A stretch of DNA of 35,541 nucleotides from Patescibacteria group bacterium. GTDB taxonomy: Bacteria > Patescibacteriota > Patescibacteriia > UBA1558 > S5-K13. Below the pieces are notes generated by a model that saw only the letters and a list, made by a program, of their open reading frames with translations, ran no database searches and was not told the origin of the DNA. Positions 6,434-22,449 of the stretch are shown here, piece by piece; position 1 is the first letter of the stretch, and every line of letters starts with the position of its first letter. The translations under genes were made by a program, and so were the position numbers. The stretch lies in assembly GCA_028703545.1 (NCBI GenBank), contig JAQVMR010000001.1, positions 1 to 35,541 of the forward strand. The letters are read 5' to 3'.

Positions 6434-6437
6434 AAAA

Positions 6438-9400
6438 ATGATAAATAAGAAATCAAAATTTATTTTAATTATTGTAACAACAATATTTGTTTTTAATACT
6501 ATCCTTGTTGTTCCAAGGAAAGTAGAAGCTCAAACCACAGACTACGCCCATATAGCAGTTACGCTTGGTAAGTGGGCATGGGAAAAGGTGGAGCGTGTGG
6601 CGACAAAGTTTTATGATTCATTGGTGACAGTAACATTTAAAAGGGTTATAGGGAATTTTTTAAATAATTTAGCATATGAGGCGGCCACCAGTTTAGCTTA
6701 TGGTGCCCCAGGAGAAAAAAAGAAGTTTTTTACAAAGGGTTTTGATGAATTTCTTGAAAATGAAGCTGATGCAGCCGTGGGAGAAGTTTTAATAGCATTC
6801 GGTGAAAGTTTGGAAATAAAGGGTTTTGATATTTGTAATCCAACGGATCCAAATTTTGCGATTGATTTAGTAACAGATCAGTTTAAAATTAGATCAGGCC
6901 AAAAAATTCAAGCAAGATGTAAATTAAGTGAAATGTCAAAGAAATGGGGAGAAATAGCGCAGAAATATATCGATAATCCTTTAGCATTATTTTCTTTAAA
7001 CGGGCAATCTCTTGCCGAATTGGGTTTTACAGAGGGTGGTAATAAAAACGAACAAATGGCAAAAGTTTTAGAAAATCTTTTAGATCCAAAACAGTCAGAT
7101 GCTGCCGTTGAAATATCGATCCGTGATCAAATACAACAAACAGAAAAAGCCTCTAATGAAAAATCAAAAGATACTATAGCGACCGCGAGAGAAACTGGGG
7201 GAGTATTGCCCAGTACAGACGCACCAACTGAAAGAAAACTCGAACCATCAAAGCAGGCAGAAGAAGACCTGAAAACAAATATCGGCGCTGATAAAAAACA
7301 AAGTCCATTACTAACCTATACAGGAAATCTAGTGGCTGATACAGCAGGAGTATTTATGGATACATATATGGCCGCCTCACTTAAGAATTTAATAATGGAG
7401 TTGTATAGAAAAGCACTAAATGAAAACGAGAGTTATAGCCCGGAACTTAATCAACTTATTGCTAAAAAACCATTTTCTTTCAAGGATTACATAGATCAAG
7501 TTTATTCTTCTGTAAAAAAAATATCTTTTAATATGAACGCAACAGATATTGAGTTAATAAGTGAAATGCAAATGACAATGAGAGATCCTAATTTAGGAAT
7601 TCCGGGTAATCTAAATGATTCTGTTATTGATTCTGATTTTGCAGAAGTTTTAAGAAGGGCTCAACTTCAAGATCCTATGACACTGAGGCAAGCCATAGAA
7701 GAGAATTTAATAAATGGAAATAAAATATTTGGATTTAAAGATTTAAATAATACTCAAATTCTTCAACAGCCAGATTTAAGTGAGGGAATTTCATATGATA
7801 ATATGAAAAAATTGAGAAAAAATAGAGTAATCCCAGTTGGTTGGGAATTGGCGGCTCTTAAGATAGCTCAATTAGCAAAAAATGGAACACTAATATGTCA
7901 ACCCGGTGGATGCACATTAAATGATGTAATGAGTCAGTATAATCAATATGGTAATTATAAATACGGAGAAGTGGTTAATGATGAAGTGCAGTGGAAAACA
8001 GCCCCGGATAACTTATGTGGTTGGAGATCTTATCCTCAACTTAATCTTACACAGGCACAATGCAACAAAGATTATTTAAGAGGAGCCCCACATTATTTAG
8101 ATGATATAGAAGTAAAATGGGTTGGAGATAGTGTTAGTAATGAAAGAACGGGTATCTGTTATAAGTATAGTTTTGATAACAACGGATTTCTATCTGAAAT
8201 AACAGAGGAATCTTCAATAGTAAGTGAAGATGATTGTGATATAGTAAATTCTAACTGGTATTATGAATGGATGGATGGTGGATGTCTTATAATAGAAAGT
8301 GGAGAAGCTCCACTTTGTGGACTTATTAATCCAGACTGGGTATTAAAAGCACCAGTACAAAAATGTTTTGCAAAAGGATATTACAGCGCACTTGAAATGA
8401 ATGAAAGTTCAAATAGGTATCAGGATTGTGCTGACACAAGACAGTGTCTTAAGGAAGATGATGGTGGAAGATGTATAGGGGGATATGGATATTGCTTGAA
8501 GGAGAAGAATATTTGGAAATTTAAAGGAGATGTGTGTGACAAAAACTATAATGGATGTGTAAGCATAACCGATGATGAAAATAAACAGCAAGCATATTTA
8601 ATTAATACATTAAGAGATTGTCCCCAAGAACAATCTGGATGTAGAAAATATTTATCTACAAAGATAAAATCAGACACTTCTTATGTTTGGGATTTAAATA
8701 TAGAAAATTTTTTCTTTAATAGAAATATTACATCTTGTAATAAGTTAAAAGAAGGTTGTAATAATTTTATTAATATAGAAAGGGGGGTTAATTTAATTCC
8801 AAATTCTAGTTTTGAAATAGACGAAGGTAGGGAAGATTTAATTCCAGATGGATGGAGTGTTACTGGTTTTAAATTATCTTCGGCTTCAGCTCTTTTAGGA
8901 AGGTATTCTCTAACTCTAGATAATGGATTGTCAGATAATACAAATATAACCGATTCATTAACAGAAGATTTAGGAGACGATAGTGGGATATCTAATGCAG
9001 ATACTGGCAAAATAAGTGGAAATGAAAGAGATGGTCGTGGAATAAATACAGGAAAAGAAGATCTAAGAAGTAATGGTGAAACATCTAATTCAGATAATGG
9101 CACAGTAAATGGAAATGAAATAGGTGGTGGTGGAATAAATACAGGTGATTTGTCTATGAATATTAAAATACCAGGAATGGGTAATTATGTTTTAAGTTAT
9201 CATGTAAAAAATATTAGCGGAAATAGTGTTGTAGTTCCTTATATAAATGATATGTCACTTGATGATGCAAAATTTGAAGAATCTGAAGCTACGGATTGGA
9301 TTAGAAAATACGCTACATATACAGTATTAGATAATTCTACCGAGGAGCTTTCATTATCAATTAACGGAAGAGGAAGTTTTTATTTAGACGATATTCAATT

Positions 9401-12400
9401 TGAATTTATAGATCAATCGATTTCTGAACCCATTGATTCATTGGGTCGAACATCTTCCAGTAGATCAAATTTAATTCCAAGTCCATACAATGAATACGGT
9501 AATACATCAAATGTTTTCTTTAAAAAAGCACCCGATTATTATAATTGTAAGAGCCTTAATCCAGCTCCTGAATGTGATAATTATTCTAAGTATTGTTCAA
9601 AAGAAGATAATGGTTGTGAACTATATAGACCCGTAAATGGGGATGCTTCGGTAAGTGCTATAGTTACGCAAAATGATGTTTGTCCATCTGAGTGTAATAA
9701 ATTTCAATCATATTCACAGCTACCAAATTATTTTGATAAGTTAGAGGCCCAAGATGCTAATGAAAATATTCCAGATCCTATTACAAGAAATTTTATAGCA
9801 GATACAGCACAAAATTGTCTTGAACCATCTTGTGAGGAGTTTACAAATATAGATAGCACTAGTCAGGGCGGAGAAGGAAGAGAATATTATAATTTTTTAA
9901 GGCAGTGCGTAACGCCCAATGATGTTAATAATGAAATAAGTATATATTATACATGGGAGGGATCTGATACAGCTGGATTTCAATTAAAAACATGGAAATT
10001 ATTAGAGAGCAACTTATCAGACGGTAATATAGCAGGAAGAAATGCTCCATGTACTAATATTGCAATAGGTGGTTTTGAGTGTTCTGATTTGTCGAGTGGG
10101 AGATCCTGTGATCCAGAAAATGATTTAGATTGTAGAAGTTTCTATGATATGAATTCAATATCATATAATAGAAAATTATCAAAAACAATTCCAATTACAG
10201 ATGAATGTATAAGATTAAGAAGAACATTAAGTAATGTCGTTTACAAGGTGGTTCCATCTATGAGTCAAAGGTGTTCAGAGTCAAATGTTGGATGTATTGA
10301 ATATAAAGGAAATAATGGAAATAATATAAGAAATGTTTTGATAGAAAATTTTGAATACGGCACATCAAACCCCTGGAATTTTTCTAATGGATTAAGCTTT
10401 CACCCATCTTCAGAATCATTACAGTATGGAGGTTCCTCATTGGCTGTTTATACGTTTGGGGGGGCGACACAATTTACACTATCATATAATTTAACAGAAA
10501 ATGGATTCAATATTATTCCAGGAAGAGAATATACTCTAAGTTTTTGGGTAAAGAAATTTAGTGACAATGATACATACGGAGAAGATAGTGATTTAATAGA
10601 AGATTCCGAACAACAGGCAATAAATTTTGAAAATTTAATTTTTAATAAAGCAAGGGCACAGGAAAATTCAAATTTGACATTTACGTCTTCTGTCGTTGAA
10701 AATCCAGAATGGGAACTCAGGCAATTAAATATTATTGTAGCACCAACTACTATAACAGAAGAAGATGAAGTTTTATTGATTATAAATATCCCAATAGTAA
10801 ATTCATCTGACTTGAGAGATGGAATATTTATAGACAATATAACACTGAAAGAATTTCAAAATAATTTTTATAAAATAAGAGATTCATGGAATACTCCACG
10901 TGTTTGCGTTGATAATGATAATAATGGAATTATTGATAATAAATATTTAGGTTGTCAGGAATATAAGGACAGGAAAAAATCATCAAATTATTTATATCAG
11001 TTTAGTAATATTTGTAATCCAGAAAATGTAGGATGTCGTGCTGTTATTGACACAAAGAATTCCAAGATGCCATTCAAACAAGTTTTTAATGCTTATTGTA
11101 ATAATACAGGAAGTGCAAGTAATCCAGAATGCACAAAGAATAAATATTATTATTTAAATAATAGAGAAGAGCCAATTTCAGGAAATGATTCAGATAGCAT
11201 GATAAAGGTTCCTGAAGATACAATAGAATATATTGTAGAGGACAATAAATTTCAATGTACTAATTCTGAAAAAGGATGTCAGAATTTAGCTATATTAGAC
11301 AATAGCGGAAATCCAAGCGATGTGTTTATGGTAAATAATCCAGATGATTATATATCAGATGACTATTTTGGTGCTCAAAACCAGACTCTATGTTTATCCA
11401 AGTATAATAATTGTGTGTCTATGGAAAAGTTGGATGGTAGTTATTTATTTAAAATTCATCCAAGGGAGAACTTGTGTGAATATAGAAAAGCAGAAATTGG
11501 TTTGGGATTACCAGCTGGTTTTTATAAGAAAGGAACGAATGAAGCATGTGATGGCCTATTATATAACAAGGGTTATGATGAATCTATGAATAATATAGAA
11601 AATACATTGAATGATCATTCTATATTCCCAGAGTTTACTAATTCTTACGCAGCAGTGTGTCCTCAGGCACAGGATTCTTGTACCGCATTTATAGACCCAC
11701 AGGATAATTTAAATCAGATACCACAAACTTTAAATTTTTATAACACAGAAAATAATAATACCCCCAATTGGAAATTATTTGATTTAAACATAAACGGAAC
11801 AATCGCACCTGTGCAAGGTAATGTTTCTGCCACATCTTCAGGAATTGAGTTTGCTGCCAATTCAGGAGAATTAGCAAGGAATAGTTACAATTTTTCTGTA
11901 GAACAAAAACAAATTTATAAATTAGCTGGATTTGTTAAATTTGATGCATCTTCAGAAAATAAAAATAGATTTATTTCAACACATTTAATTTGTAAAAAGA
12001 ATAAAAACTCAGATGAATATTATTACTCTGTTGCTGAAAATAAATTACCATACGCATTTCCAGATTTAAATTCAAATTATTTTGTAAAGGAAAACGCTGG
12101 TAATGTCGATAAATGGATTTATATATATGGACTCTATACAATAGAGCCAGGTGCAAATTTTTGTAATGTTGCATTCTATTACGGCGGAAATGATGGAAAT
12201 ATATCAATTATAAATATGTCATTTGAAAAATTACAAGGATATTATACATATATTGATAATCAAAATATTGATAGAACAACTTGTATAGAACCAAGCAAAG
12301 AAAAGGGGTGTGTTTTATTTCATCAAGTTACAGATCCAACCCTAAGATGGAGTTCAGATATAAGTTATGATAATTCTAGTTTAGTAATGGGAAATTTGTA

Positions 12401-15400
12401 TTCTGTTGCAGACTCTAATGTGCTCTTGAAGGTTACAAAAGATAGAACTTGTGGAGAATGGGCGACTTGTGGTTCATCTATTAAAACAGTTGATGAAAAA
12501 ACAGGACAAGAAAAAAATTCTTGTATATCTCTTATTGGATGCGACTCCCTCTCTGCAGACAATTCTCAGTGTGATAATTTTATTTTAAGAGATGACAGCG
12601 TAAAACCACTTACATTTGATGATTATCAGAGACAAATGGGTATTGATTTATCATGGTCAGAAATGGATTATAGTGGATATTCTGTGCCAGGACTTTATCC
12701 TCTTGATAGTTTGTCGATATTTCCGACCAACACAACAACAAAGGAATATGAATTGGGGAGATCCGTAATTAAGAGAAATGTATCTGGACAAAATTTAGTT
12801 TATAAGTTTGGCTTGGGAGTTGATCCAGTTGAATCTTATTATAATGCATATAAATACCTAGATAGTCAATATAAAACATGTAGATTGTATCCAGAAAAAG
12901 ATTCACCATTTGTATGGACTCCTAGCATAGTTTTGGAATCTACTGCAACGACAGTTGGTGGAGTTTCTTATTCAATTCCTACATCCTTGAATCAAAGATT
13001 TCAAAATGCGAATATATGTCAACCAAAGTTTAACACTGAGGATCCGCCTTTGATAGATTGGTCACTGGGATTAAATAATGATTGTGATTGTAATTATACA
13101 AAAGTTACATACGGTTCTTCAAAAAATCTATATTTTCCTTATGGATATAGTAATATACCAGCAAATATTACAGAAGAATACTCTGCAACAACCATATCAA
13201 ATAAGAAATCACAAACAAATTTTATAGGATGGCGAGGATTCTGCTTAGAAAGAGATGATTCATTTTTGGCAACACCTCCTAACACAATCAGTGGAAATGG
13301 TGATAGATATAAAACAAGATGTTTATCTTGGTATCCTGTTGATTCTATAAGTGGTGAGATTGATTTATATTCTGTAGCACCAGAATCTAAAATATCTATG
13401 CCATCTGACTCTAAAGTGTGTTTAGTTGCAGATGATTATGTAACGGAAGAAGATAGAGTATACTGTGCCTTTTGGAGTTCAAATGAGAGCGAATCTAAAG
13501 CTGGTTTGTATGGCACTCAAGGGTCAGGTCATGGTTATAATGCTTTTGACCCTCAATTGTCAAGATGCAATGTATTGGCCTATGTGCCAGCAGGGACAAA
13601 ATTGTCACAAAATTCAGAAGAAGATTTTTATAACTACTTTACAAATCCAGATAATTATTGGACTCAGGATGAATTTAATGATAAATTTGTAACACAAACA
13701 CTAACAAATAACCAAGATAAAAGTTATGATATTATATATGGGGTTAATTGGCCAAGCTGGTATGAAAACAATGTTTATTATGCTGGTTTTCACTGTAATC
13801 TTTATTCAGAAGGGGGGCACTATTGGAGAGAGAAGGAGCTAAAATTTAATCCTATAGAATTTATGGAAGTTGAAAATCCTGAGGGCGACCTCACATTGGC
13901 ATTGGAGAGAGATTTCATGGAAGATTTTAAAAATAAATTATTGCCCAAGTTTCCAATTAATCAGCCTATTGATTTTTATTACTATGATGAGGGCGTGAAA
14001 CCTTCTGGTGAAAGCTATGTAGGAACTGACGGTCATGGTGTTTATGAATGGGATGACCTTAATTCCGGTTATAGGGCTAATCTATTCAGTACAGATGATA
14101 AACGAAATGTATTTATTCCACTCAGTAAGAAAGGTTATGGCTTCGACGATGACAATACTCAAGCATGTAGTAGTGCCCAAACTGTTGGAGATGCTTATAG
14201 AGAAGCCTGTGATGCAGCTAATACTCATTTTGGTGATGAATTTAACCCTTCTTTACCATATCCAAAAGGACATGAGGTTTATACAGATTGTGTCAGTGGT
14301 GGAGATTCTGAATCAATGTGGAATCCACTTAGACACAATTATTATGTTCATTATGACGGAACTAATAAGCATACCTACAGTCAAGGATGGCCTATTGGGC
14401 CTCAAAGCGTAGATGATTATGCAGGAAATATGTCATCTTGTCCTTCTGGTGATTGTGCGTCCAGCTATGATGATTTTCAAAGTATTAAAGCTTGTAGGGC
14501 TACTGGACTTATCAGTGATTCAAGTGATTCTGGATTTGATAATGTTATATTTCATTCGGATAATTATTATATAAATTATATACTGAAGTTTGGTGATGTT
14601 GGCACAACAACAGATTCAATATGTACAATACAAAATAATAATATTTGTTCTTCTATAGAAGTTGGGAAATCGAATTTATTCTCATATGATACTCTTATTT
14701 TAAGAGTTAAAGACGTAGCACAAGAAAATACTAATTTTAATGTCAATAATCATATAGGCACAGAGTTTGGTTTGTCGTCTGGTGTGAGTAGTTTAAGAGA
14801 TCCTATACATTCTAATTCTGATAATTTTAAGAATTATTATTATACATACTCTACTGATATTAAAAATTCACTAACAGGAGCTAGGAATAATTTAAGTAAT
14901 TCAATAGTAAAAATTGCAAATATAGAGCATTATCAATATGCAGTCAATGCGTGGGAGGAGGGTAATTGGGTCACATCTTCATATATTTGGGATTTAAGAG
15001 AAAATTCAGAAAACAATGCTCCAATTATCAAGCAAGTAAATAAAGATGGAGAGGGAGCCAGGGGAATAACAGTTAATAACAGTAATTCTGCGGATATATA
15101 TGCCGTGAAAAGTCTAAAAGTTAATTTGAGTTTTTACGCTTACGCTCGGTGGGGCAGATCTCCAATAAAAGAAATAAAATTGGATTGGTATGGCGACGAC
15201 TCCGATACATTAACACTTCCAGGACCATTTAAAAATAAAAGAGCAGAATGTATAAGAAAGTGTGCGGATAAATATAGTTCAATTTCAATACAAGATTGGA
15301 ACAATGGTGATTATTGTAATTCTGATTCTGATTGTACAGGCGGGCAAAAATGTTTTTCCTATGGTTGGGGTAATGATCAAAATTCTTGTGTTGAAGACGA

Positions 15401-15665
15401 ATTTAATTATTCATTTGTATATGTTTGCACCCCAGATAGCGACTATTGGATTGATAGTTGTGAAATAGCGGGTGATGAACCATGTTGTATATTTAATCCA
15501 GCAGTTATAATTACTGACTCTTGGGGAAATTCCTCTGAATCGGGAATGTCTGATGAAAAATCAATTATAATAACAACAAATCAAGGAATTTTGAATATTA
15601 GAAATCGACAACAAAACATAGAAGAAGACGAAGAAGACGAAGAAGACGATGTAACATTTAGATGA
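6438..15665 (+). CDS. Giant secreted Cys-rich multidomain protein (3,075 aa from the preferred start), function unknown
   Basis: Longest ORF in the window (track: 6405..15665). I prefer the ATG at 6438, 4 nt after the upstream TAA, because it gives a classical signal peptide MINKKSKFILIIVTTIFVFNTILVVPRKVEA/QTT. The first ~450 mature residues are Cys-poor. About 88 Cys (hand count) then lie mainly in spacers between three Cys-poor CBM4_9-like beta-sandwich modules. The tail is acidic (EEDEEDEEDD). There is no TM anchor or LPXTG motif. Confidence 0.85.
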   Translation: MINKKSKFILIIVTTIFVFNTILVVPRKVEAQTTDYAHIAVTLGKWAWEKVERVATKFYDSLVTVTFKRVIGNFLNNLAYEAATSLAYGAPGEKKKFFTKGFDEFLENEADAAVGEVLIAFGESLEIKGFDICNPTDPNFAIDLVTDQFKIRSGQKIQARCKLSEMSKKWGEIAQKYIDNPLALFSLNGQSLAELGFTEGGNKNEQMAKVLENLLDPKQSDAAVEISIRDQIQQTEKASNEKSKDTIATARETGGVLPSTDAPTERKLEPSKQAEEDLKTNIGADKKQSPLLTYTGNLVADTAGVFMDTYMAASLKNLIMELYRKALNENESYSPELNQLIAKKPFSFKDYIDQVYSSVKKISFNMNATDIELISEMQMTMRDPNLGIPGNLNDSVIDSDFAEVLRRAQLQDPMTLRQAIEENLINGNKIFGFKDLNNTQILQQPDLSEGISYDNMKKLRKNRVIPVGWELAALKIAQLAKNGTLICQPGGCTLNDVMSQYNQYGNYKYGEVVNDEVQWKTAPDNLCGWRSYPQLNLTQAQCNKDYLRGAPHYLDDIEVKWVGDSVSNERTGICYKYSFDNNGFLSEITEESSIVSEDDCDIVNSNWYYEWMDGGCLIIESGEAPLCGLINPDWVLKAPVQKCFAKGYYSALEMNESSNRYQDCADTRQCLKEDDGGRCIGGYGYCLKEKNIWKFKGDVCDKNYNGCVSITDDENKQQAYLINTLRDCPQEQSGCRKYLSTKIKSDTSYVWDLNIENFFFNRNITSCNKLKEGCNNFINIERGVNLIPNSSFEIDEGREDLIPDGWSVTGFKLSSASALLGRYSLTLDNGLSDNTNITDSLTEDLGDDSGISNADTGKISGNERDGRGINTGKEDLRSNGETSNSDNGTVNGNEIGGGGINTGDLSMNIKIPGMGNYVLSYHVKNISGNSVVVPYINDMSLDDAKFEESEATDWIRKYATYTVLDNSTEELSLSINGRGSFYLDDIQFEFIDQSISEPIDSLGRTSSSRSNLIPSPYNEYGNTSNVFFKKAPDYYNCKSLNPAPECDNYSKYCSKEDNGCELYRPVNGDASVSAIVTQNDVCPSECNKFQSYSQLPNYFDKLEAQDANENIPDPITRNFIADTAQNCLEPSCEEFTNIDSTSQGGEGREYYNFLRQCVTPNDVNNEISIYYTWEGSDTAGFQLKTWKLLESNLSDGNIAGRNAPCTNIAIGGFECSDLSSGRSCDPENDLDCRSFYDMNSISYNRKLSKTIPITDECIRLRRTLSNVVYKVVPSMSQRCSESNVGCIEYKGNNGNNIRNVLIENFEYGTSNPWNFSNGLSFHPSSESLQYGGSSLAVYTFGGATQFTLSYNLTENGFNIIPGREYTLSFWVKKFSDNDTYGEDSDLIEDSEQQAINFENLIFNKARAQENSNLTFTSSVVENPEWELRQLNIIVAPTTITEEDEVLLIINIPIVNSSDLRDGIFIDNITLKEFQNNFYKIRDSWNTPRVCVDNDNNGIIDNKYLGCQEYKDRKKSSNYLYQFSNICNPENVGCRAVIDTKNSKMPFKQVFNAYCNNTGSASNPECTKNKYYYLNNREEPISGNDSDSMIKVPEDTIEYIVEDNKFQCTNSEKGCQNLAILDNSGNPSDVFMVNNPDDYISDDYFGAQNQTLCLSKYNNCVSMEKLDGSYLFKIHPRENLCEYRKAEIGLGLPAGFYKKGTNEACDGLLYNKGYDESMNNIENTLNDHSIFPEFTNSYAAVCPQAQDSCTAFIDPQDNLNQIPQTLNFYNTENNNTPNWKLFDLNINGTIAPVQGNVSATSSGIEFAANSGELARNSYNFSVEQKQIYKLAGFVKFDASSENKNRFISTHLICKKNKNSDEYYYSVAENKLPYAFPDLNSNYFVKENAGNVDKWIYIYGLYTIEPGANFCNVAFYYGGNDGNISIINMSFEKLQGYYTYIDNQNIDRTTCIEPSKEKGCVLFHQVTDPTLRWSSDISYDNSSLVMGNLYSVADSNVLLKVTKDRTCGEWATCGSSIKTVDEKTGQEKNSCISLIGCDSLSADNSQCDNFILRDDSVKPLTFDDYQRQMGIDLSWSEMDYSGYSVPGLYPLDSLSIFPTNTTTKEYELGRSVIKRNVSGQNLVYKFGLGVDPVESYYNAYKYLDSQYKTCRLYPEKDSPFVWTPSIVLESTATTVGGVSYSIPTSLNQRFQNANICQPKFNTEDPPLIDWSLGLNNDCDCNYTKVTYGSSKNLYFPYGYSNIPANITEEYSATTISNKKSQTNFIGWRGFCLERDDSFLATPPNTISGNGDRYKTRCLSWYPVDSISGEIDLYSVAPESKISMPSDSKVCLVADDYVTEEDRVYCAFWSSNESESKAGLYGTQGSGHGYNAFDPQLSRCNVLAYVPAGTKLSQNSEEDFYNYFTNPDNYWTQDEFNDKFVTQTLTNNQDKSYDIIYGVNWPSWYENNVYYAGFHCNLYSEGGHYWREKELKFNPIEFMEVENPEGDLTLALERDFMEDFKNKLLPKFPINQPIDFYYYDEGVKPSGESYVGTDGHGVYEWDDLNSGYRANLFSTDDKRNVFIPLSKKGYGFDDDNTQACSSAQTVGDAYREACDAANTHFGDEFNPSLPYPKGHEVYTDCVSGGDSESMWNPLRHNYYVHYDGTNKHTYSQGWPIGPQSVDDYAGNMSSCPSGDCASSYDDFQSIKACRATGLISDSSDSGFDNVIFHSDNYYINYILKFGDVGTTTDSICTIQNNNICSSIEVGKSNLFSYDTLILRVKDVAQENTNFNVNNHIGTEFGLSSGVSSLRDPIHSNSDNFKNYYYTYSTDIKNSLTGARNNLSNSIVKIANIEHYQYAVNAWEEGNWVTSSYIWDLRENSENNAPIIKQVNKDGEGARGITVNNSNSADIYAVKSLKVNLSFYAYARWGRSPIKEIKLDWYGDDSDTLTLPGPFKNKRAECIRKCADKYSSISIQDWNNGDYCNSDSDCTGGQKCFSYGWGNDQNSCVEDEFNYSFVYVCTPDSDYWIDSCEIAGDEPCCIFNPAVIITDSWGNSSESGMSDEKSIIITTNQGILNIRNRQQNIEEDEEDEEDDVTFR
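9006..9146 (+). repeat. 93-nt-period direct repeat inside a G/N/D/S-rich insert of the giant gene
   Basis: ggaaatgaaagagatggtcgtggaataaatacagga (9018-9053) and ggaaatgaaataggtggtggtggaataaatacaggt (9111-9146) are offset by 93 nt. They encode GNERDGRGINTG and GNEIGGGGINTG. Confidence 0.8.
15621..15647 (+). repeat. Perfect (GAAGAAGAC)x3 microsatellite encoding EEDEEDEED, ending six codons before the giant gene's stop
   Basis: Read directly: gaagaagac gaagaagac gaagaagac, followed by gat gta aca ttt aga tga. Confidence 0.95.
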
Positions 15666-15702
15666 TATTTATTTAATGGATAATGCTCGGGTATAAATTT
15701 GT

Positions 15703-18700
15703 ATGATAAATAGAGATAATAAAATATATAAAACATTGAGAAGTATAATACAAAAATTTAAAAATTTTGAAAATTCTTTAACAAGAAAAAGAAAAATTTT
15801 TTACGCTATTTCTTTATTTTTTATTTGTATATTTTTTTGTTTCCCGGGGGCAACAGCGAGGGCGACATTAATGGATGCAATTCTTAATCTACTTACAAAT
15901 TTATTTTTGACTATACTTAGTTTTTTGGGTTGGATTGCTACTAAACTTATGATAGCTTTAGTTTTTTTTGCAACATGGGGTAAATACACAACAGGCATAC
16001 ATGCAGTTGTTGAAGGATGGAAAATTGCAAGAGATATATGTAATATGTTTTTTATATTTATACTTCTTATAATCTCATTTGCTACTATAATAGGCATAGA
16101 ATCATATTCATATAAAAAATGGCTAGGGAAGGTTGTAATATTTTCAATTCTAATAAATTTTTCTAAAATGATCACAGGTCTTTTAATAGATGTTTCTCAG
16201 ATAGTGATGTTAACATTTGTGAGTGGATTTAAAGATGCAACTGTGGGTAATTTTGCAAAGGGCCTTCATTTAGACCAGTTGATGAAAAAGGAAGCAGGCA
16301 CAAGTTCAGAAGAAAAGAATAGCAGCACAAGTGTTTTTGTAACAGTGGTGTTAGCTTGTATAATGTTGGTAGTTTTAAATGTCATATTGGTTATTATGAT
16401 AGTTATGCTTGTGGGAAGAATTTTGAGTTTTTGGATTTTGGCAATTTTATCTCCTTTTGCATTTTTACTTCAAGCATCTCCTGCGGGGGGTAAATATGCA
16501 AATGAGTGGTGGCAGTCTCTTTCAAAAAATCTTATTAGTGGTCCAATACTTGCAATGTTTATTTATTTGACAATGGCAACAATTCAAAATTCTGTTGATG
16601 CAGACCATAATAAAGTTGAGAATTTATCTGAAATTGGTGGAGTTTTAGACAAAGATGAAGAAAATATGGGTACTAGTGGGGCAACAGTTGGGCAGTATTC
16701 TTTAGAGAAGACCAGTATGATTTTAGATTTTATTATTGTTATTGCTATGATGATTGCAGCCATAAGGATAGCGGGATCGCTTGGAGTAATGGGTTCAAGT
16801 TTTGCTGGTAATATGTCAAATAAATTACAGAAAGCTGGTTCTTCAGCCCTTAAACTTGGTATGGCGGGGGTCGGTGCTGCTACAGGAGCAAATTATTTAG
16901 CGAAAAGATATAGGGCATATAAAGAAATTAGAAAAGATAGAAAAGATCAAAAAGCATATCAAGATGCACAGAAATTTATGGATAGAACTGGAAAAATGAA
17001 GCAGGGCGTTGGTAAATTTATGCAAAATCCACTAAAATCTTTGTCCAGTGACAGAAATAAAGTAGGAAGATTTTTTAAAGGAGCTGAACAAAAAAGACAG
17101 AATGTTGCAAAATGGGCTAGTGGTACTTGGGCTGGAAGACGTGCTCATGATTTAAATTTTGCCCAAAAGGCTAGAGAAAGAGCAGAAAAATCAGCAAATG
17201 CGGCTTCTCATCTTTCTTATGCTAGGAGCATGGGAGTTCGCAATACCCAAGATATAGATAATTTGGAAAATGGTTTAGATACTCGAAGAACCAACATAGA
17301 TAGAGATGAAGCACATTTTATAGAAGAATATAGAAATAGTCATCCAGGGGCCAATATAACAGATATAGATCAGATAGATAAGGGTACATTAAATGAGGAT
17401 CAAAGAGTGCAGCTTGATAATTTGAATAATAATAGAAAAAAAATAGAAACAGAACAGGGACACATAGATGGACTTAGAGATTTGGTTGGAGGTTTAGATG
17501 TGCAAGAGGCGGAATTTATAAATAATTATCGAAATAATAATCCTACTTCTACTGCAACAGATTTAAGTGAAATAGATAGAAGAACCCTGACTGATCAAGA
17601 AAGAAATAAACTTTATAGTTTAATGAATCAAAGAACAAGATATGATCAATCAGGAGAGAATAAAAATTTAGAAACTTTAGATGATTTATATAAAAGACAT
17701 AATATAAAGAATGAACAGAAGAATAGTTTAGATAGGCAAGAGGCGGAATTTATAAATAATTATAGAAATAATAATCCGGGCGTTAGAATAACATCTTTGG
17801 GTGACATAGATAGAACTACTTTGAATGATCAACAGAGAACTGAACTTGCTAAATTGGAAAAACAAAGAAATAAGTTGGGAGAAGTTGGACCGGCTATAAA
17901 TAATTATGAAGATGTTTTAGCAAATACAAGAATTTTAGATGAAACTATAAATCATTTTCAGGAAAAATCAGAGAAATCATCAAGAGCTGCTCAGGGTTGG
18001 ACAGAATTTGGAACTGGTGCCGCAGCTGTATTTAGAAGATCCCTTTTGGCAACATCATTTTTAGCTCCATTTGCTTCTGCTCTTGGGGGGTCATTTTTTG
18101 CTCCACTAGCTAATTTATATGGAATTCATACAGCAACAGGCGGTGTATATGGTGCATTGGCATCTTCTGGTGCAAGCTGGTCAATGGCTGCTGCAGCTGC
18201 ACCTGGCTTAACGAGTGATGCAGGTAAGGCACTTGAGCGAAGTGGTCAGGCAGATGTAAGGGATGCTGCAAATTATTTAAGTAATAAAGTTATGGATGCT
18301 GCAAAAAAATTTGAGGATATGGATACAGGAATGGTAGAACGCATGAGAGATGATATAAAAACTTCTAATGTGGATTATATGGCAGCTCAATTCCAATTAT
18401 TAAAAAGAGGTCTTGTGGGTGTAGATCAAATACCACAGCTTTTATCTGATTTACAAAATCGTGGTGCTGATAGAAATACACTGAGATCATTTGAAGGAGA
18501 AATAAGAAAACAATTCCCAACGGAAGGTAGATGGTTAGATGCACAAGGAAGGCCATTATTAGACGGAGACAGAGGAAGTAGACAGGCAGAACAGATGAGA
18601 CTCAATGGAGTGGGAAGAGTATTAGAGGGTATAAATGCAACGGGATATACACAAGAAATAATAAGAAATGCCATTAGAGAATCAAGAACGCCCGCTGAAC

Positions 18701-19224
18701 TTAGAGCGGATGCAAATCGTTTGTCAATAGAGCAACAAAGGGGTGTTGCTCAAGTTTCTCATAGAATTTTAATAGAGGATAGTGCTGGTATGAATACAGA
18801 GGATTTGAATAAACTAGCTCAATTTTTATCTACATCCCTGAGCTCTAATGTAAATAGAGAAGAGAGACAAACAATGTCTCGTGAGGCCTATAATGAATTA
18901 ATAGGAAGAGATGATATAGCACAGATAAATACAGCAGATTTATTGGTAAATATGGATTTAAATGATGCGGGGTTAGATCAGAGACAGCTTTTGGCAAATA
19001 TTAATCCAGTAGAAATTGGAAATATGGTTAGAACAGCAAATGATTTAGGTGGAGATAGAAAAACCATGGTTAATGATTGGTTGGGACAAATTAGGCCATT
19101 ATTAGATCAAATGCTTACCGGTAATCAACTAGAACAACAGAATGCTCAACGTATCATAGCAAGATTAGGCCAAATGCAGGGAGCGGCCGCTTTAAATACC
19201 ATGAATAATCTTGATTTATATTAG
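15703..19224 (+). CDS. Large polytopic membrane protein (1,173 aa), with a core possibly related to TrbL/VirB6-type channel proteins
   Basis: N-terminal signal/anchor, then at least 7 hydrophobic spans within residues ~30-365. A basic, coiled-coil-like region follows and contains three tandem repeats. A second Gly/Ala-rich hydrophobic patch is present (GAAAVFRRSLLATSFLAPFASALGGSFFAPLANLYG...AAAAAPGL). The ~340-aa tail is rich in Arg, Ala and Gln. The TrbL/VirB6 resemblance of the segment WKIARDICNMFFIFILLIISFATII...ILINFS is from memory and unverified. Confidence 0.75.
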   Translation: MINRDNKIYKTLRSIIQKFKNFENSLTRKRKIFYAISLFFICIFFCFPGATARATLMDAILNLLTNLFLTILSFLGWIATKLMIALVFFATWGKYTTGIHAVVEGWKIARDICNMFFIFILLIISFATIIGIESYSYKKWLGKVVIFSILINFSKMITGLLIDVSQIVMLTFVSGFKDATVGNFAKGLHLDQLMKKEAGTSSEEKNSSTSVFVTVVLACIMLVVLNVILVIMIVMLVGRILSFWILAILSPFAFLLQASPAGGKYANEWWQSLSKNLISGPILAMFIYLTMATIQNSVDADHNKVENLSEIGGVLDKDEENMGTSGATVGQYSLEKTSMILDFIIVIAMMIAAIRIAGSLGVMGSSFAGNMSNKLQKAGSSALKLGMAGVGAATGANYLAKRYRAYKEIRKDRKDQKAYQDAQKFMDRTGKMKQGVGKFMQNPLKSLSSDRNKVGRFFKGAEQKRQNVAKWASGTWAGRRAHDLNFAQKARERAEKSANAASHLSYARSMGVRNTQDIDNLENGLDTRRTNIDRDEAHFIEEYRNSHPGANITDIDQIDKGTLNEDQRVQLDNLNNNRKKIETEQGHIDGLRDLVGGLDVQEAEFINNYRNNNPTSTATDLSEIDRRTLTDQERNKLYSLMNQRTRYDQSGENKNLETLDDLYKRHNIKNEQKNSLDRQEAEFINNYRNNNPGVRITSLGDIDRTTLNDQQRTELAKLEKQRNKLGEVGPAINNYEDVLANTRILDETINHFQEKSEKSSRAAQGWTEFGTGAAAVFRRSLLATSFLAPFASALGGSFFAPLANLYGIHTATGGVYGALASSGASWSMAAAAAPGLTSDAGKALERSGQADVRDAANYLSNKVMDAAKKFEDMDTGMVERMRDDIKTSNVDYMAAQFQLLKRGLVGVDQIPQLLSDLQNRGADRNTLRSFEGEIRKQFPTEGRWLDAQGRPLLDGDRGSRQAEQMRLNGVGRVLEGINATGYTQEIIRNAIRESRTPAELRADANRLSIEQQRGVAQVSHRILIEDSAGMNTEDLNKLAQFLSTSLSSNVNREERQTMSREAYNELIGRDDIAQINTADLLVNMDLNDAGLDQRQLLANINPVEIGNMVRTANDLGGDRKTMVNDWLGQIRPLLDQMLTGNQLEQQNAQRIIARLGQMQGAAALNTMNNLDLY
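17302..17880 (+). repeat. Three tandem protein repeats (periods of 66 and 78 codons) in the 1,173-aa membrane protein
   Basis: The three units are RDEAHFIEEYRNSHPGANITDIDQIDKGTLNEDQRVQLDNL, VQEAEFINNYRNNNPTSTATDLSEIDRRTLTDQERNKLYSL and RQEAEFINNYRNNNPGVRITSLGDIDRTTLNDQQRTELAKL. Units 2 and 3 share a near-identical DNA block, caagaggcggaatttataaataattat, at 17503 and 17737 (234 nt apart). Confidence 0.9.
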
Positions 19225-19389: not shown

Positions 19390-21210
19390 ATGCAAGAATT
19401 AAAACAAAATCAAAAAATTATAGAATCTATTTTAAGTAAGTTTAATTTAGGTTTAAATTTATATCATTTATTAGAGAGTATTCTGGATGGATATTTTTCT
19501 GATATTTTTGATTTTAATTTTACTATTGAAGATTTAATTAAAAATATAAAACTAGACAAACAAAAGGCGGTTGAACTTTTATTATACTCAGGTGCATTGC
19601 TTTCAGACACACTAGAAGATAAGAAATTAGAAGAATTAAATAAATTTGCAAAAGAAAATGGTTTTGATTTTGAAAAATTATTTGAGGATTCAATTAGCAG
19701 TCTTATTGATACAAGTATCGATGATTTTATAGATTATTCTTTATTAGACGATAATATTGACTCGACCTTAAAAATATTTCAGTACCATCTAATTTTAGCC
19801 ATACAAGAACAAAATAGTTTTGAATTATCAAGATTAGACACAATGATAATGACTCAATTAATGTTTGATCCAGATGTAAAAGACAAAATTCTAGAAGCAC
19901 TATCAAAAAACCAATATATTATTCAAGATAAAAAAATATCTGACTGGATAAAAGAGTTTGAAAGTATAATAAAAAAAGATTATAGGTCAAGCTTTATAGC
20001 AAAAAATAATTTTATCGATAATCAAAACTTAAATATAAAATATAAAAATTTATTGTCAAAGATTTTAGTTATGTATTTAAGGATAAAATTTTCTCCAAAA
20101 AGTTTTGATGATATTACAGAAACGGATTATTTTATAATTCCATATATTAAAGTTTTGTCAGGACAAATTGAAATTACAAACGAAAAAATTGTAAATATAT
20201 TAAAAGATAATTTATATAATTTGATAAATAGCGAAACAGGGATCGATCATGAAATTTTAAATGCTTTTATAGTTTCTGATATGGATAATGATGTTTTCAG
20301 AAGAGGAATTGAAGATGCATTATATAAAAATAGTGAACAAATAACAGACACAAAAATAAAATTAGAAGAAGCTGAAGTTATTGGCACAACAGCTAATTGG
20401 ATAAAAGATTATATAGAAAAAAATGGAATTGATAAATATGATGACATTGCATTTTCAACCTATATACTGGATTCAGAAAATACAAAAAATTTAAAAGAAG
20501 ATGAAAGAGAAATAGTAAAAAGATTATTGCAATTTTATTTGAATATGAAATTTTACTCACAGATTTTTGTTGGGATTGAGAGAGAAAAATGGACCATATA
20601 TCCTATAGAATTAAAGGAGGGAGTAAAAATAAAGAAGGTTTTTGTTCCAGAGTCGGTTGAAGAACGTATTCAAAAAATTCCAGAGAAAAAAGCTTCTAAC
20701 ATAGACACACTTTTAAATGCTTACAAAAATTTTGAATTAAGCTTTAAAAATTTAGAAACTCAAGTTACTAAAGACCTTAAATTAAAAAAAAGTACTGATT
20801 TAGATGAAGAATTTTTGAATTTTATAAATACAAATAAAGTAAAAGAAGCAATGGTTGTTTTGTCTTATGTGTGTAGTAATAATTTGATAAATATATTCTT
20901 TAAAGATAATAAAATTTTACAAAGAGATTTTAAGAAATTTTTAGAAAATAAATTTTCAGAAGATATGATAAATAATATTATAGGATTTTTTGGTACAGTT
21001 GAGTCAGTTAGTTTGTTCTTACAATTTTTATTAACAGAAAAATTGAGATTAATACCAAAAGATTCGGCGATTTTCGGAATGTATTTAGCTAACATATTTA
21101 AGAAATCAAAACAAGAAAAATATTTTCCCATTGTTTATGGTGATGTAAATTCTACTATGTTTATTTTTAGAGAAATAAAAGATGTTGCAGGAAAATTAGT
21201 AATAAAATAG
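19390..21210 (+). CDS. Hypothetical soluble protein (606 aa), last gene of the cassette
   Basis: Long uninterrupted ORF with no hydrophobic spans, no P-loop and no motif I recognise. The composition, rich in K/E/D/N/I/L, suggests a helical protein. A hairpin plus T-run follows the stop. Confidence 0.7.
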   Translation: MQELKQNQKIIESILSKFNLGLNLYHLLESILDGYFSDIFDFNFTIEDLIKNIKLDKQKAVELLLYSGALLSDTLEDKKLEELNKFAKENGFDFEKLFEDSISSLIDTSIDDFIDYSLLDDNIDSTLKIFQYHLILAIQEQNSFELSRLDTMIMTQLMFDPDVKDKILEALSKNQYIIQDKKISDWIKEFESIIKKDYRSSFIAKNNFIDNQNLNIKYKNLLSKILVMYLRIKFSPKSFDDITETDYFIIPYIKVLSGQIEITNEKIVNILKDNLYNLINSETGIDHEILNAFIVSDMDNDVFRRGIEDALYKNSEQITDTKIKLEEAEVIGTTANWIKDYIEKNGIDKYDDIAFSTYILDSENTKNLKEDEREIVKRLLQFYLNMKFYSQIFVGIEREKWTIYPIELKEGVKIKKVFVPESVEERIQKIPEKKASNIDTLLNAYKNFELSFKNLETQVTKDLKLKKSTDLDEEFLNFINTNKVKEAMVVLSYVCSNNLINIFFKDNKILQRDFKKFLENKFSEDMINNIIGFFGTVESVSLFLQFLLTEKLRLIPKDSAIFGMYLANIFKKSKQEKYFPIVYGDVNSTMFIFREIKDVAGKLVIK

Positions 21211-21252
21211 ATTATTGACATTTATATTACAATTATTTAATATCATATAGGG

Positions 21253-21282
21253 GTCGCCATTAATTATTAATCGCGACTTTTT
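21253..21282 (+). terminator. Candidate intrinsic terminator after the 606-aa gene
   Basis: The structure is GTCGC-c-ATTAAT-t-ATTAAT-c-GCGAC followed by TTTTT, 43 nt after the stop at 21210. The T-run abuts the ATG of the RAYT-like gene. The stem is short and mostly A/T, so support is weak. It could instead be a hairpin belonging to the HUH gene. Confidence 0.3.
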
Positions 21283-21804
21283 ATGTTAAAAATTAGTAGA
21301 AACTTTTATCCAGAAGTATTTTATCATATTTATAATAGAGGTGTTGATAAGAGAAAGATATTTTATTGTAGAAGGGATTATTTATTTTTTATAAATAGAA
21401 TTAATTTTTATAGGCGAGTAACAGGGGTTATTATTGTAAGTTATTGTTTGTTACCAAATCATTATCATTTTATTTTGCGTGAACCACCCCACCCAATGGG
21501 TGGTCTTCCACCCATTGGGTGGGGATATAAAACAAATGTAAATCCATTTTCAAATTTTAAAATTCCTAAATTTATGGGTCTTCTAGCCAATTCATATACA
21601 AAATATTTTAATAATAAAAAAGGACGATCTGGAAGATTATTTGAATTTGTTTTTAAGTCTAGAGAAATTAATAAAGAAAATCAATTAAGCAATGTTGTTA
21701 ATTATATTATTTTCAATCCGCTAAAGCATGGATTGGTAAATAATCAGAAAGATTGGAAATATACATTTGTTGATGATAAAAAAATAACCAATGTTTTGCA
21801 TTAG
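21283..21804 (+). CDS. IS200/IS605-type Y1 HUH transposase-like protein (REP-associated tyrosine transposase, RAYT-like)
   Basis: HUH motif in LLPNHYHFIL. The C-terminal catalytic-Tyr helix NYIIFNPLKHGLV matches the Y-I-x-x-N-P-x-x-x-G-L-V pattern of RAYT-like proteins. RSGRLFEFVFKS matches the conserved G-x-L-[FW]-Q-x-R-[FY] strand. The ORF is intact despite an in-frame palindromic insert at 21487-21524. Confidence 0.7.
   Translation: MLKISRNFYPEVFYHIYNRGVDKRKIFYCRRDYLFFINRINFYRRVTGVIIVSYCLLPNHYHFILREPPHPMGGLPPIGWGYKTNVNPFSNFKIPKFMGLLANSYTKYFNNKKGRSGRLFEFVFKSREINKENQLSNVVNYIIFNPLKHGLVNNQKDWKYTFVDDKKITNVLH
21487..21524. repeat. Perfect 17-bp G+C-rich inverted repeat with a 4-nt loop, in frame inside the RAYT-like gene
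   Basis: CCCCACCCAATGGGTGG tctt CCACCCATTGGGTGGGG. The right arm is the exact reverse complement of the left. 12 of 17 arm positions are G/C, in otherwise A+T-rich DNA. It encodes PHPMGGLPPIGWG. Confidence 0.95.
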
Positions 21805-21826
21805 TTATTTTTTATTTTATAAGGAA

Positions 21827-22387
21827 TTATTTTACTCTCTCTACGTAATCCCCGGTTTCTGTGTTTATTCTTATTGTGTCGCCTTCATTTACAAATAGAG
21901 GACATTTAATTTGTGCGCCGGTTTCTATGGTTACAAGTTTTGTGGCGCTTCCTGCTGTATCACCCTTTATACCGGGTGGAGCCGTAATAACTTTAAATTC
22001 CATTTTTGTTGGAAGTCCTATGTTTACTGATTTTCCATTGAATTTTAATATGTCAACTATTGTTCCTTCTCTTAAAAATTGGACTTGATCACCAATATCT
22101 TCTTTTAGAAAAGAGAATTGTTCAAAGCTTTCTTGATCCATGAAGTTGTAGTTATCCCCATCAGAATATAAGAAACTTGCTTTTGTTGTTTCTAAATTTG
22201 CTTCTTCAGCCTTATCTGATCCAGAAAAAGTTTTTTCAACAACAGAACCATTTATAAGATTTTTAAGCTTTGTGCGAAGCACAGCACCACTTCTTGCTTG
22301 TTTTGAATGTTGAGCTAAAACAACCTTATATGGTTGATCGTTTATAGCAATAATTTTTCCTAATTTGATTTCACTAAAATCTAACAT
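21827..22387 (-). CDS. efp: Translation elongation factor P
   Basis: EF-P pattern: G-x-I-I...QPYKVV...RTKLKNLINGSVVEKTF, a KOW-like N-domain and two OB-like domains. The track starts at a TTG at 22411. I prefer the ATG at 22387 (MLDFSEIKLGK...), which gives a standard length (186 aa) and puts the loop-tip residue at position 32. Confidence 0.9.
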   Translation of the reverse strand: MLDFSEIKLGKIIAINDQPYKVVLAQHSKQARSGAVLRTKLKNLINGSVVEKTFSGSDKAEEANLETTKASFLYSDGDNYNFMDQESFEQFSFLKEDIGDQVQFLREGTIVDILKFNGKSVNIGLPTKMEFKVITAPPGIKGDTAGSATKLVTIETGAQIKCPLFVNEGDTIRINTETGDYVERVK

Positions 22388-22412
22388 ATTTTTGTCTTTT
22401 AATAAATTCAAT

Positions 22413-22426
22413 CCCGCTTAAGCGGG
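22413..22426 (-). other. G+C-rich palindrome/hairpin between rpsR and efp
   Basis: CCCGCTTAAGCGGG is a perfect palindrome (5-bp GC stem, 4-nt loop). It sits 23 nt after the rpsR stop and 26 nt before the preferred efp ATG. No clean U-run follows on the minus strand. It could be an attenuator, a processing site or a weak terminator. Confidence 0.3.
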
Positions 22427-22449
22427 GTTGAAGTATAAAATAATTTAAA

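Follow-up and report, generated by a model that had tools for sequence, protein, structure and literature searches.

Why should a gene for a hairpin-binding type of enzyme carry, in frame and just past its HUH motif, a perfect hairpin of its own? The question is raised by a 35,541-nucleotide stretch of a contig from a Patescibacteria group bacterium (JAQVMR010000001.1, positions 1 to 35,541, the entire contig; hereafter the window, 35.5 kb in full). In it, a G+C-rich palindrome lies inside a gene for a small Y1/HUH protein of the kind represented by the REP-associated tyrosine transposases (RAYTs; REP, repetitive extragenic palindrome). We consider it likely that this hairpin is the cognate palindrome of the encoded RAYT-type enzyme, similar to a REP or a terminal inverted repeat (TIR), and that it sits as an inverted doublet, resembling a REPIN (a pair of inverted REPs), in a permissive loop of the protein. 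The evidence comes from the geometry of the hairpin, from the way the insert has evolved in related genes, and from copies of the same units that flank those genes.

An Inverted Palindromic Doublet within a Y1/HUH Gene

The hairpin has a 17-bp stem with fully complementary (100%) arms and a TCTT loop. A first-pass annotation, made from the letters of the window, had described it as the strongest inverted repeat present, G+C-rich in A+T-rich DNA and in frame just past the HUH motif, and these observations stand. It is the sole perfect inverted repeat of at least 15 nt listed for the window and, among perfect stems of at least 9 bp, the only one that is G+C-rich (66% G+C vs 26% for the host gene and 21–39% across the window). 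Its first codon is the seventh after H62 of N59-H-Y-H62, that is, six codons past the HUH motif, and it encodes P69–G81 (PHPMGGLPPIGWG) within the open reading frame (ORF) 21283..21804(+). A detail absent from that annotation is that each arm is itself a 15-nt odd-centred palindrome; one unit thus occurs twice in the element, the second time inverted, as the complementary centre bases of the two copies show. The features of the gene and hairpin are as follows.

21283..21804, + strand: Y1/HUH (RAYT/TnpA_REP-like) gene, 173 aa, based on Pfam, NCBIfam, an AlphaFold2 (AF2) model, structure 4ER8 and alignments
21215..21243, + strand: TTGACA-17-TAATAT, a promoter-like site for the Y1 gene, with hexamers that are both conserved in loci L161 and L163
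21460..21468, + strand: HUH motif H60-Y61-H62, with H60 and H62 invariant in 118 sequences
21481..21558, + strand: clade-specific insert, codons 67–92, its first half the hairpin and its second half YKTNVNPF...
21487..21524, no strand: hairpin made of two inverted 15-nt palindromic units; in frame, coding for P69–G81
21487–21503: left arm, CCCCACCCAATGGGTGG, 17 nt
21508–21524: right arm, CCACCCATTGGGTGGGG, 17 nt
21489..21503, no strand: unit 1, CCACCCA-A-TGGGTGG, odd-centred; the hairpins of relatives are built from like units
21508..21522, no strand: unit 2, CCACCCA-T-TGGGTGG, its centre base complementary to that of unit 1
21703..21720, + strand: catalytic-tyrosine motif Y141-I-I-F-N145-P146, with Y141 and N145 invariant in 118 sequences

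As single-stranded DNA (ssDNA), the element is predicted to fold into one long stem (−23.6 kcal/mol); the alternative of two small hairpins is less favourable (−11.2 kcal/mol). The predicted RNA fold has a stability of −39.8 kcal/mol (z = −6.2), which none of 200 shuffled sequences equalled. An assembly artefact was considered and rejected, as hairpins at the same site are present in independent assemblies from JGI, ENA, NCBI, and Logan. On the opposite strand, an ORF of 41 aa (21465–21590, minus) reads through the hairpin with a nearly identical peptide (PHPMGGRPPIGWG); this follows trivially from the palindrome and does not indicate a gene.

The protein has a TnpA_REP fold with HUH and Y---NP motifs intact, which bears out the earlier description of the gene as RAYT/IS200-like. 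The only families it matches are Pfam Y1_Tnp (PF01797; E = 0.005, 17.4 bits, cut-off 23) and NCBIfam REP_Tyr_transpos (NF047646; 62.5 bits, cut-off 80). Both scores are below their cut-offs, and the NCBIfam match falls in two stretches with the insert between them. PF01797 is present in the precomputed annotation of many relatives. The AF2 model is of good quality overall (predicted local distance difference test, pLDDT, 88.4; predicted template modelling score, pTM, 0.83), and its top Foldseek match is 4ER8, Escherichia coli TnpA_REP with a REP hairpin (E = 3.6e-7, template modelling scores 0.66/0.69), followed by the TnpA proteins of ISDra2 and IS608. A sequence profile search also finds 4ER8 (E = 1.2e-6). 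Seven residues do not vary across 118 aligned homologues (H15, N18, N59, H60, H62, Y141, and N145). The tyrosine motif, Y---NP, is the one that defines class 2 TnpA_Y1 (PMC6006769). The window protein is without a C-terminal tail of ~35 aa found in most relatives.

The Insert Is Conserved as DNA Symmetry across a Clade

The first-pass annotation had taken the hairpin for an insertion because the linker at this position is short in related proteins, and alignments agree. Between the HUH motif and the SYTKYFN helix there are 20 aa in insert-free homologues (119 proteins scored) vs 41 aa in the window protein, and the group formed by this protein and its nearest relatives (P0002–P0010, 43–52% identity) has linkers of 36–43 aa. 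The insert is modelled as a disordered loop between the HUH strand and helix alpha-C. Residues 67–92, with a pLDDT of ~51–53, form a coil between the HUH strand (60–66) and helix 93–113, a low-confidence loop consistent with the surface position that had been considered.

The DNA of 12 homologues, fetched protein by protein, was compared at this site. A scan of metagenome loci with the clade alignment was saturated by generic family members (27–42% identity) and returned no clade member. Each of these 12 closest homologues shows a palindrome at this very codon position, and 10 have a perfect G+C-rich stem of 12–19 bp, every one with a different sequence. Loops are of 3–4 nt (9 nt in L161), and the hairpins are located 29–38 nt past the first base of the PNH codons. 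One example reads ACCGACCCTCAGGGTC-ggc-GACCCTGAGGGTCGGT; others have the arms and loops ACCCACCCTTAGGGTG-gaa, TACCACCTCCGAGGTG-ccc, CCAACGTCCGACGTT-tct, and CCGACCTCGCAGGTC-gaac. Like that of the window, each is a doublet of a 13–15-nt odd-centred palindrome except in L082, which has a direct doublet, and L083, which has a single unit with a 6-bp stem. Across the clade loci sampled, the palindromic insert is kept in 13 of 13 and a perfect stem of at least 12 bp in 11 of 13.

Changes in the two arms are coordinated. When 11 sequences were aligned over their inner 14 pairs (153 stem cells), 99.3% of cells were paired and 11 of the 14 pairs showed double changes, with no one-sided change in any pair and no G-T pair in any cell. 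The covariation score was reached by none of 500 shuffles, and pairing drops to 29–50% in slid controls. Close relatives also differ by a swap of the two centre bases, C...G in one and G...C in the other (L163 vs L174, L171 vs L172), which is taken, along with the half-gene duplicate described below, as a sign that the hairpins are live DNA sites.

The encoded peptides, in contrast, are unrelated among orthologues (TLRVGDPEG, TPGVVDPGG, TSEVPHLGG, NQRPTFLTSDV). Conserved residues border the hairpin peptide, with E-P ahead of it clade-wide and Y-K-x-N-V-N behind it in most members, and the second half of the insert (YKTNVNPF...) is conserved at the protein level in part of the clade. The insert is thus conserved clade-wide as DNA symmetry and not as a peptide, the opposite of a peptide that persists in distant orthologues without the palindrome. 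The earlier view of the insert as lineage-specific holds if the lineage is taken to be the whole clade, but the insert is neither recent nor specific to one genome, given its clade-wide codon position and complete covariation. Back-translation of loop peptides in search of hidden palindromes had too high a background, control regions ahead of the HUH motif giving equally long potential stems; recurrent TPGV, DPRG, and TSEV peptides in P0124, P0129, P0135, P0195, and P0258 are an anecdotal pointer only.

Copies of the Same Unit Flank Related Genes

One possibility raised by the first-pass annotation was that a REP-like element had landed in the gene of its own mobiliser. This gains support from relatives, as the locus-specific internal unit also flanks the gene in 11 related loci (L163, L167, L169, L171–L175, and L082–L084). 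Upstream copies are located ~40–170 nt 5' of the ATG, mostly at 75–125 nt, and 3' copies are 0–7 nt from the stop codon, some overlapping it. Wherever the contig reaches far enough, copies are found on both sides, with the exception of L081, which has upstream copies only; the same repeat is on both sides of the gene in L163, L167, L171, L172/L173, L175, and L082–L084. Flanking copies are single units or doublets and are usually identical to the internal unit except for the centre base. In L082 and L172/L173, flanking and internal copies are identical including the spacer and neighbouring bases.

The unit changes with the protein. Close proteins have a unit in common (L163 and L174, L171 and L172, L167 and L169), whereas distant proteins differ in theirs, the pattern of co-evolution known for RAYTs and REPs. 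Paralogues within one metagenome-assembled genome (MAG) or locus, namely L081 vs L084 and the two of L082, have different units and diverged proteins. Two genomes thus have two diverged Y1 paralogues each, L081 and L084 being from the same MAG and those of L082 being at 6085–6687 and 14735–15316, and every paralogue comes with a unit of its own, both in the flanks and internally. The MAG of L081 and L084 is labelled "uncultured Gammaproteobacteria", and its Y1 genes are only ~27–28% G+C; the other labelled clade member (L083) is assigned to Patescibacteria. In L163, a cassette resembling a diversity-generating retroelement (bAvd, DUF559, and reverse transcriptase; 14434–16929) adjoins the Y1 locus.

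Flanking palindromes are a property of the wider family as well. A survey of loci L001–L160 comprised 129 distinct Y1 genes. In 100 of these the 5' and 3' flanks share at least 11 nt (median 15), vs 25 of 642 permuted pairs; these common stretches, for example AGGTGCG-A-CGCACCT or AGGTGAC-A-GTCACCT, are short palindromes too. Of the 93 genes with a flank unit, 14 also carry it in frame inside the gene, vs 16 of 1846 controls. These internal copies occur at two places. Copies in the loop between HUH and Y are found in this clade and in the distant L061 and L107, whose perfect 13-bp hairpins (L061:6190–6221 and L107:10045–10077) lie 51 nt past the PNH codons and match their own flank repeats; L107 is from Moheibacter (Bacteroidota). 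These two hairpins appear to be independent insertions into the same loop as that used in the window clade. A second permissive site is the loop that precedes the HUH strand. Members that have no insert after HUH, namely L012, L040, and L047 and also L052 and L134, carry an internal copy there (aa ~35–55), and peptides like NQSLAL and NQGGAL recur as a result.

A Duplicated Half-Gene Is Bounded by Hairpins

Locus L163 has a truncated Y1 paralogue (P0023, L163:3868–4335) 6 kb from the full gene (L163:10001–10642). At the DNA level the two are homologous over a segment that opens with the first base of the internal doublet and closes with the 3' hairpin, without a single extra base at either end. 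As the homology stops exactly at both hairpins, the segment that they bound was duplicated, which is the expected product of hairpin-directed cutting and joining of ssDNA. The truncated copy also has an additional in-frame insert of ~36 nt (L163:4168–4205) with near-complementary ends, ACCCCTCAC ... GTGTGGGGT, which is not in the full gene.

The Window and Its Sister Locus Retain the Internal Doublet

Window and L161 are syntenic. Both have giant ORFs, an ORF that encodes 606 aa in the window and 441 aa in L161, the Y1 gene, and efp-rpsR-ssb-rpsF, and the promoter hexamers TTGACA-17-TAATAT are common to both. Both proteins are missing the ~35-aa C-terminal tail. The internal hairpin of L161 is perfect and differs from that of the window in sequence and loop length. 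In the flanks of the window gene, the longest sequence common to the 5' and 3' sides is 8 nt, equal to background. In these two loci, therefore, flanking copies and the C-terminal tail are gone, and the internal doublet is the sole copy left at the locus.

The Y1 gene itself comes and goes among near-identical strains. When elongation factor P (EF-P) was used as a probe, named matches at 55–71% identity were Patescibacteria, and the three closest genomes were L272 (98%), L276 (94%), and L277 (88%). These three have the same neighbouring genes and no Y1 gene; a spacer of 100–125 nt separates efp from the upstream gene. L161, with EF-P at 80% and single-stranded DNA-binding protein (SSB) at 77% identity, falls outside the group formed by the window, L272, L276, and L277, yet has the gene. 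Because the gene is absent from the three closest genomes and present in an outlying one, either three losses or two gains at this one spacer have to be assumed. In both cases it belongs to the accessory, strain-variable genes and not to the fixed housekeeping set. The whole A+T-rich spacer differs between strains, so that neither an insertion boundary nor a target duplication is definable from filled and empty sites. The empty spacers, each with an A+T-rich terminator hairpin and corresponding to 21211–21826 of the window, are the following.

L272:6561–6686: empty spacer
L276:6585–6690: empty spacer
L277:6561–6663: empty spacer

Remnants of the window hairpin were sought in the empty spacers of the closest relatives, and local alignment scores were no better than those of random windows. 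L272 (as well as L273–L275) has a perfect 12-bp G+C-rich hairpin at the empty Y1 site (L272:6585–6613; GTAGAGGCGTAG-taatg-CTACGCCTCTAC) with a GTAG...CTAC "double foot". It is the only G+C-rich perfect hairpin in the 12.5-kb locus and may be a solo REP-like relic; no link to the unit of the window was found. An 11-nt likeness between an arm of this hairpin and the segment coding for YNRG was dropped, being about what chance gives by a rough estimate.

Other features of the neighbourhood are noted here. Upstream of the Y1 gene are very large ORFs at 6405–15665 (3086 aa) and 15703–19224 (1173 aa), syntenic in L161, L272, L276, and L277. The adjacent 606-aa protein is fast-evolving, with 37–82% identity among strains whose EF-P proteins are 80–98% identical. 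A 25-nt near-palindrome, GTCGCCATTAAT-T-ATTAATCGCGAC, and the TTTTT behind it (21253–21282) lie between the promoter-like site (21215–21243) and the ATG of the Y1 gene (21283), ahead of which no obvious Shine-Dalgarno sequence is seen. This near-palindrome may form a structure in the 5' leader or may serve the upstream ORF as a terminator. A G+C-rich palindrome (TTCAATCCCGCTTAAGCGGGGTTGAA, 22407–22432) separates rpsR from the efp start on the minus strand.

A Proposed Mechanism and Its Alternatives

The cognate-palindrome interpretation suggests the following mechanism. A unit or doublet would fold into a hairpin when the DNA is single-stranded, and the Y1 enzyme would bind the folded hairpin and could cut and rejoin DNA next to the stem, as predicted from the established biochemistry of TnpA_REP (4ER8) and of the TnpA proteins of IS608 and ISDra2. 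Such processing, gene conversion among copies, or both would keep the arms perfect and hold internal and flanking copies identical, and the loop peptide would be a passenger. That the doublet evolves in concert with flanking copies and bounds a duplicate is indirect evidence that these palindromes are live DNA substrates. The absence of G-T pairs, the presence of units in non-coding flanks, and the position of at least one of them upstream of a promoter argue for constraint at the level of DNA rather than RNA.

Several observations weigh against this interpretation. The window, gene flanks included, has no second copy of the unit at up to 3 mismatches, and the 20-kb sister locus L161 has no second copy either, its flanks being free of the unit at the same tolerance; for this reason, the identity of the palindrome as a REP in the window's own genome rests on relatives. 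Relatives have their own units in their flanks; the exact doublet with any 4-nt loop has no match in 185,579 species genomes (the window's genome is not among them). Among viral contigs, the 15-mer unit matches 96, once each and never as a doublet, which is chance level by a rough estimate only. A single dispersed copy of a unit was found in ~116 kb of relatives' flanking DNA (L163:16828–16840, directly past the reverse transcriptase gene and with the 8-nt 5' flank of the upstream copy, TTAATTCC), so the units do not form a high-copy family. Nor do they have the GT[AG]G foot by which canonical REPs are defined. Perfect stems in the window and L161, where flanking templates are missing, need either selection on the hairpin or self-correction of the palindrome. 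Last, the mRNA would form the same hairpin, and an additional effect at the RNA level is possible.

These observations leave some room for other explanations. The hairpin could be a neutral passenger, an ancient palindrome lodged in a permissive loop and no longer acted on by the enzyme, with arms kept perfect by intrastrand template switching or quasi-palindrome correction at replication, and persisting as most deletions would break the frame. The perfect stems of the window and L161 without a flanking template copy are consistent with this, as are the disordered loop, the unconstrained peptide, and the dispensability of the gene in close relatives. However, long perfect palindromes are usually prone to deletion, and this one has been kept at every clade locus sampled (13 of 13). 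Moreover, internal and flanking copies match each other unit by unit in relatives, down to spacer and flanks in L082 and L172/L173, and the half-gene copy of L163 is bounded by hairpins. Together, these point to exchange between copies or cleavage at hairpins rather than self-correction alone, and we regard a neutral passenger as unlikely. Quite unlikely, too, is that the internal palindrome is a selected third site, either an autoregulatory operator or decoy, or a programmed site of cleavage or recombination for self-truncation or gene duplication. The same low probability is given to its extension, in which the enzyme binds or cuts the hairpin in its own gene, mobilises half-genes, and drives the regeneration of perfect palindromes, and in which the hairpin is the sole substrate once flanking sites are lost, as in the window. 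Such a role overlaps with the cognate-palindrome interpretation. It would fit the strict conservation of codon position in the clade, the survival of the hairpin beyond that of flanking copies in the window and L161, the internal copies in two different loops in different clades, and the hairpin boundary of the half-gene copy. Yet most family genes with flank repeats have no internal copy (it is present in only 14 of 93), making it dispensable to the family, and two permissive loops combined with local insertion account equally well for its recurrence.

The first-pass annotation had also offered an RNA structure modulating translation. Under this explanation, a stable mRNA hairpin would slow or stall ribosomes or recruit RNase and so limit a potentially harmful nuclease, much as IS200 limits transposase synthesis by RNA structure. 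The predicted stability (−39.8 kcal/mol, z = −6.2) and a position in mid-ORF downstream of a good promoter are in its favour, but the pattern of change is not that of an RNA. No G-U pair occurs in the 153 stem cells, all changes being double Watson-Crick ones, and identical units occur in the non-coding flanks, where the one at L163:9910 closely precedes a −35 box and so is not part of the mRNA. No Rfam family reaches its threshold (best scores of 21–31 bits vs gathering scores of 80–100), there are no terminator-like sites at 21000–22000 and no T run behind the stem, and inspection by eye only, for a −1 frameshift signal, revealed no conserved slippery heptamer upstream of the hairpins. The proposal thus finds no support, and we hold an RNA-level regulator to be distinctly improbable. 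Finally, it is very hard to credit that the loop peptide (PHPMGGLPPIGWG) functions as protein with the palindrome being incidental. Part of the clade does conserve the second half of the insert (YKxNVNxF.G), but the residues encoded by the hairpin are wholly different among orthologues while nucleotide symmetry is perfect, and pLDDT at the loop is 51–53.

Comparison with Known Systems

An in-frame cognate palindrome in a RAYT-type gene is already known; what differs here is the subclass, the Patescibacteria-like clade, and the non-canonical units. Quentin, Siguier, Chandler, and Fichant (2018; PMC6006769) described tnpA_REP genes of subclass 2.4 (RAYT group 4) that often have in-frame REPs between HuH and Y, in the beta3/alphaC loop, along with flanking REPs, and the insert was modelled as a peripheral extension. 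The likeness is close, as a cognate palindrome is within the enzyme's own gene, in the same loop, with the frame kept. However, the motifs of subclass 2.4 (NH[IFV]H, WQ, and YIxNNP) are not matched by those of the window protein (NHYH, F120-E121, and YIIFNP). The units of the clade are without a GT[AG]G foot and are 13–15-nt odd-centred palindromes in doublets, and the window gene is without flanking copies. Hosts also differ, being A+T-rich and Patescibacteria-like in this clade and Cyanobacteria or Bacteroidetes in subclass 2.4.

The clade consensus (NH[YHF]H, FQ, and YINLNP) is fitted best by the signature of subclass 2.1 (NH[YF]H, FQ, and Y[IV]HLNP). NHYH matches, the window protein has FE and not FQ, and the tyrosine motifs of the clade (YINLNP) and window (YIIFNP) are close and not identical to that of the subclass. 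Subclass 2.1 corresponds to the TIRYT genes of TIRtrons, in which tyrosine-transposase genes lie between inverted repeats that bear no relation to GTAG REPs (Di Nocera et al. 2013; PMC3733652); some of these repeats are self-complementary or "double palindromic", and they are mostly low-copy (PMC3733652). The layout of REPtrons and TIRtrons, with the same repeat on both sides, is found in relatives and is absent from the window. Quentin et al. (2018) found no REP-like sequences near subclass 2.1 genes and reported no internal copies (PMC6006769). Proteins of that subclass have a median length of 238 aa, compared with 173 aa for the window protein and 165–213 aa for its relatives. No extra Pfam domain was found in the window protein or its relatives, and the long C-terminal domain of subclass 2.1, which resembles a helix-turn-helix, is probably missing from them.

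Like the REPINs of Bertels and Rainey, the hairpins consist of two inverted palindromic units that form one long hairpin and are associated with a single-copy RAYT-type gene, and here, too, unit and enzyme co-evolve. REPINs, however, are extragenic and number tens to hundreds of copies, while these units number one to three at the gene, almost none elsewhere, and one of them is coding. The hairpins start with CCCCAC, ACCGAC, ACCCAC, TACCAC, CCAACG, and so on, with no consistent GTAG or GTGG foot among them. Because of the missing foot and the low copy number, the units are not canonical REPs.

Elements of the IS200/IS605 family (IS608, ISDra2) have TnpA proteins with the same catalytic fold and hairpins near both gene ends, and the copying of a hairpin-bounded segment to another site is as expected of ssDNA "peel and paste" chemistry. 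They differ in having Y---Q where this clade has Y---NP, and there are no multiple identical copies here. Furthermore, the hairpins of the clade are perfect and symmetric with no asymmetric bulge, and strand choice is thus not encoded in the stem. Palindromes tolerated in an ORF as surface peptides are also known from Rickettsia palindromic elements (RPEs), intragenic REPs (PMC3733652), and coding palindromes in mitochondria of Nematomorpha (PMC6649704). Those are located in unrelated genes, whereas here the gene is that of the presumed own enzyme and the site is inherited by the clade. In the literature, we found no report linking RAYTs to Patescibacteria.

Implications

RAYT-type enzymes and palindromes are a widespread bacterial pairing. 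The window offers a small, clean enzyme–hairpin pair, with a putative 38-nt substrate inside the gene of a 173-aa enzyme, suited to biochemical work on RAYT specificity. An insert that splits the profile match explains why such genes score below family cut-offs and why they encode odd P/G-rich peptides. More broadly, a large group of subclass 2.1-like Y1 genes that is common in Patescibacteria, and that was reported to be REP-less, is usually bracketed by locus-specific palindromes, and one clade within it has inherited a further doublet, in frame and always at the same codon position.

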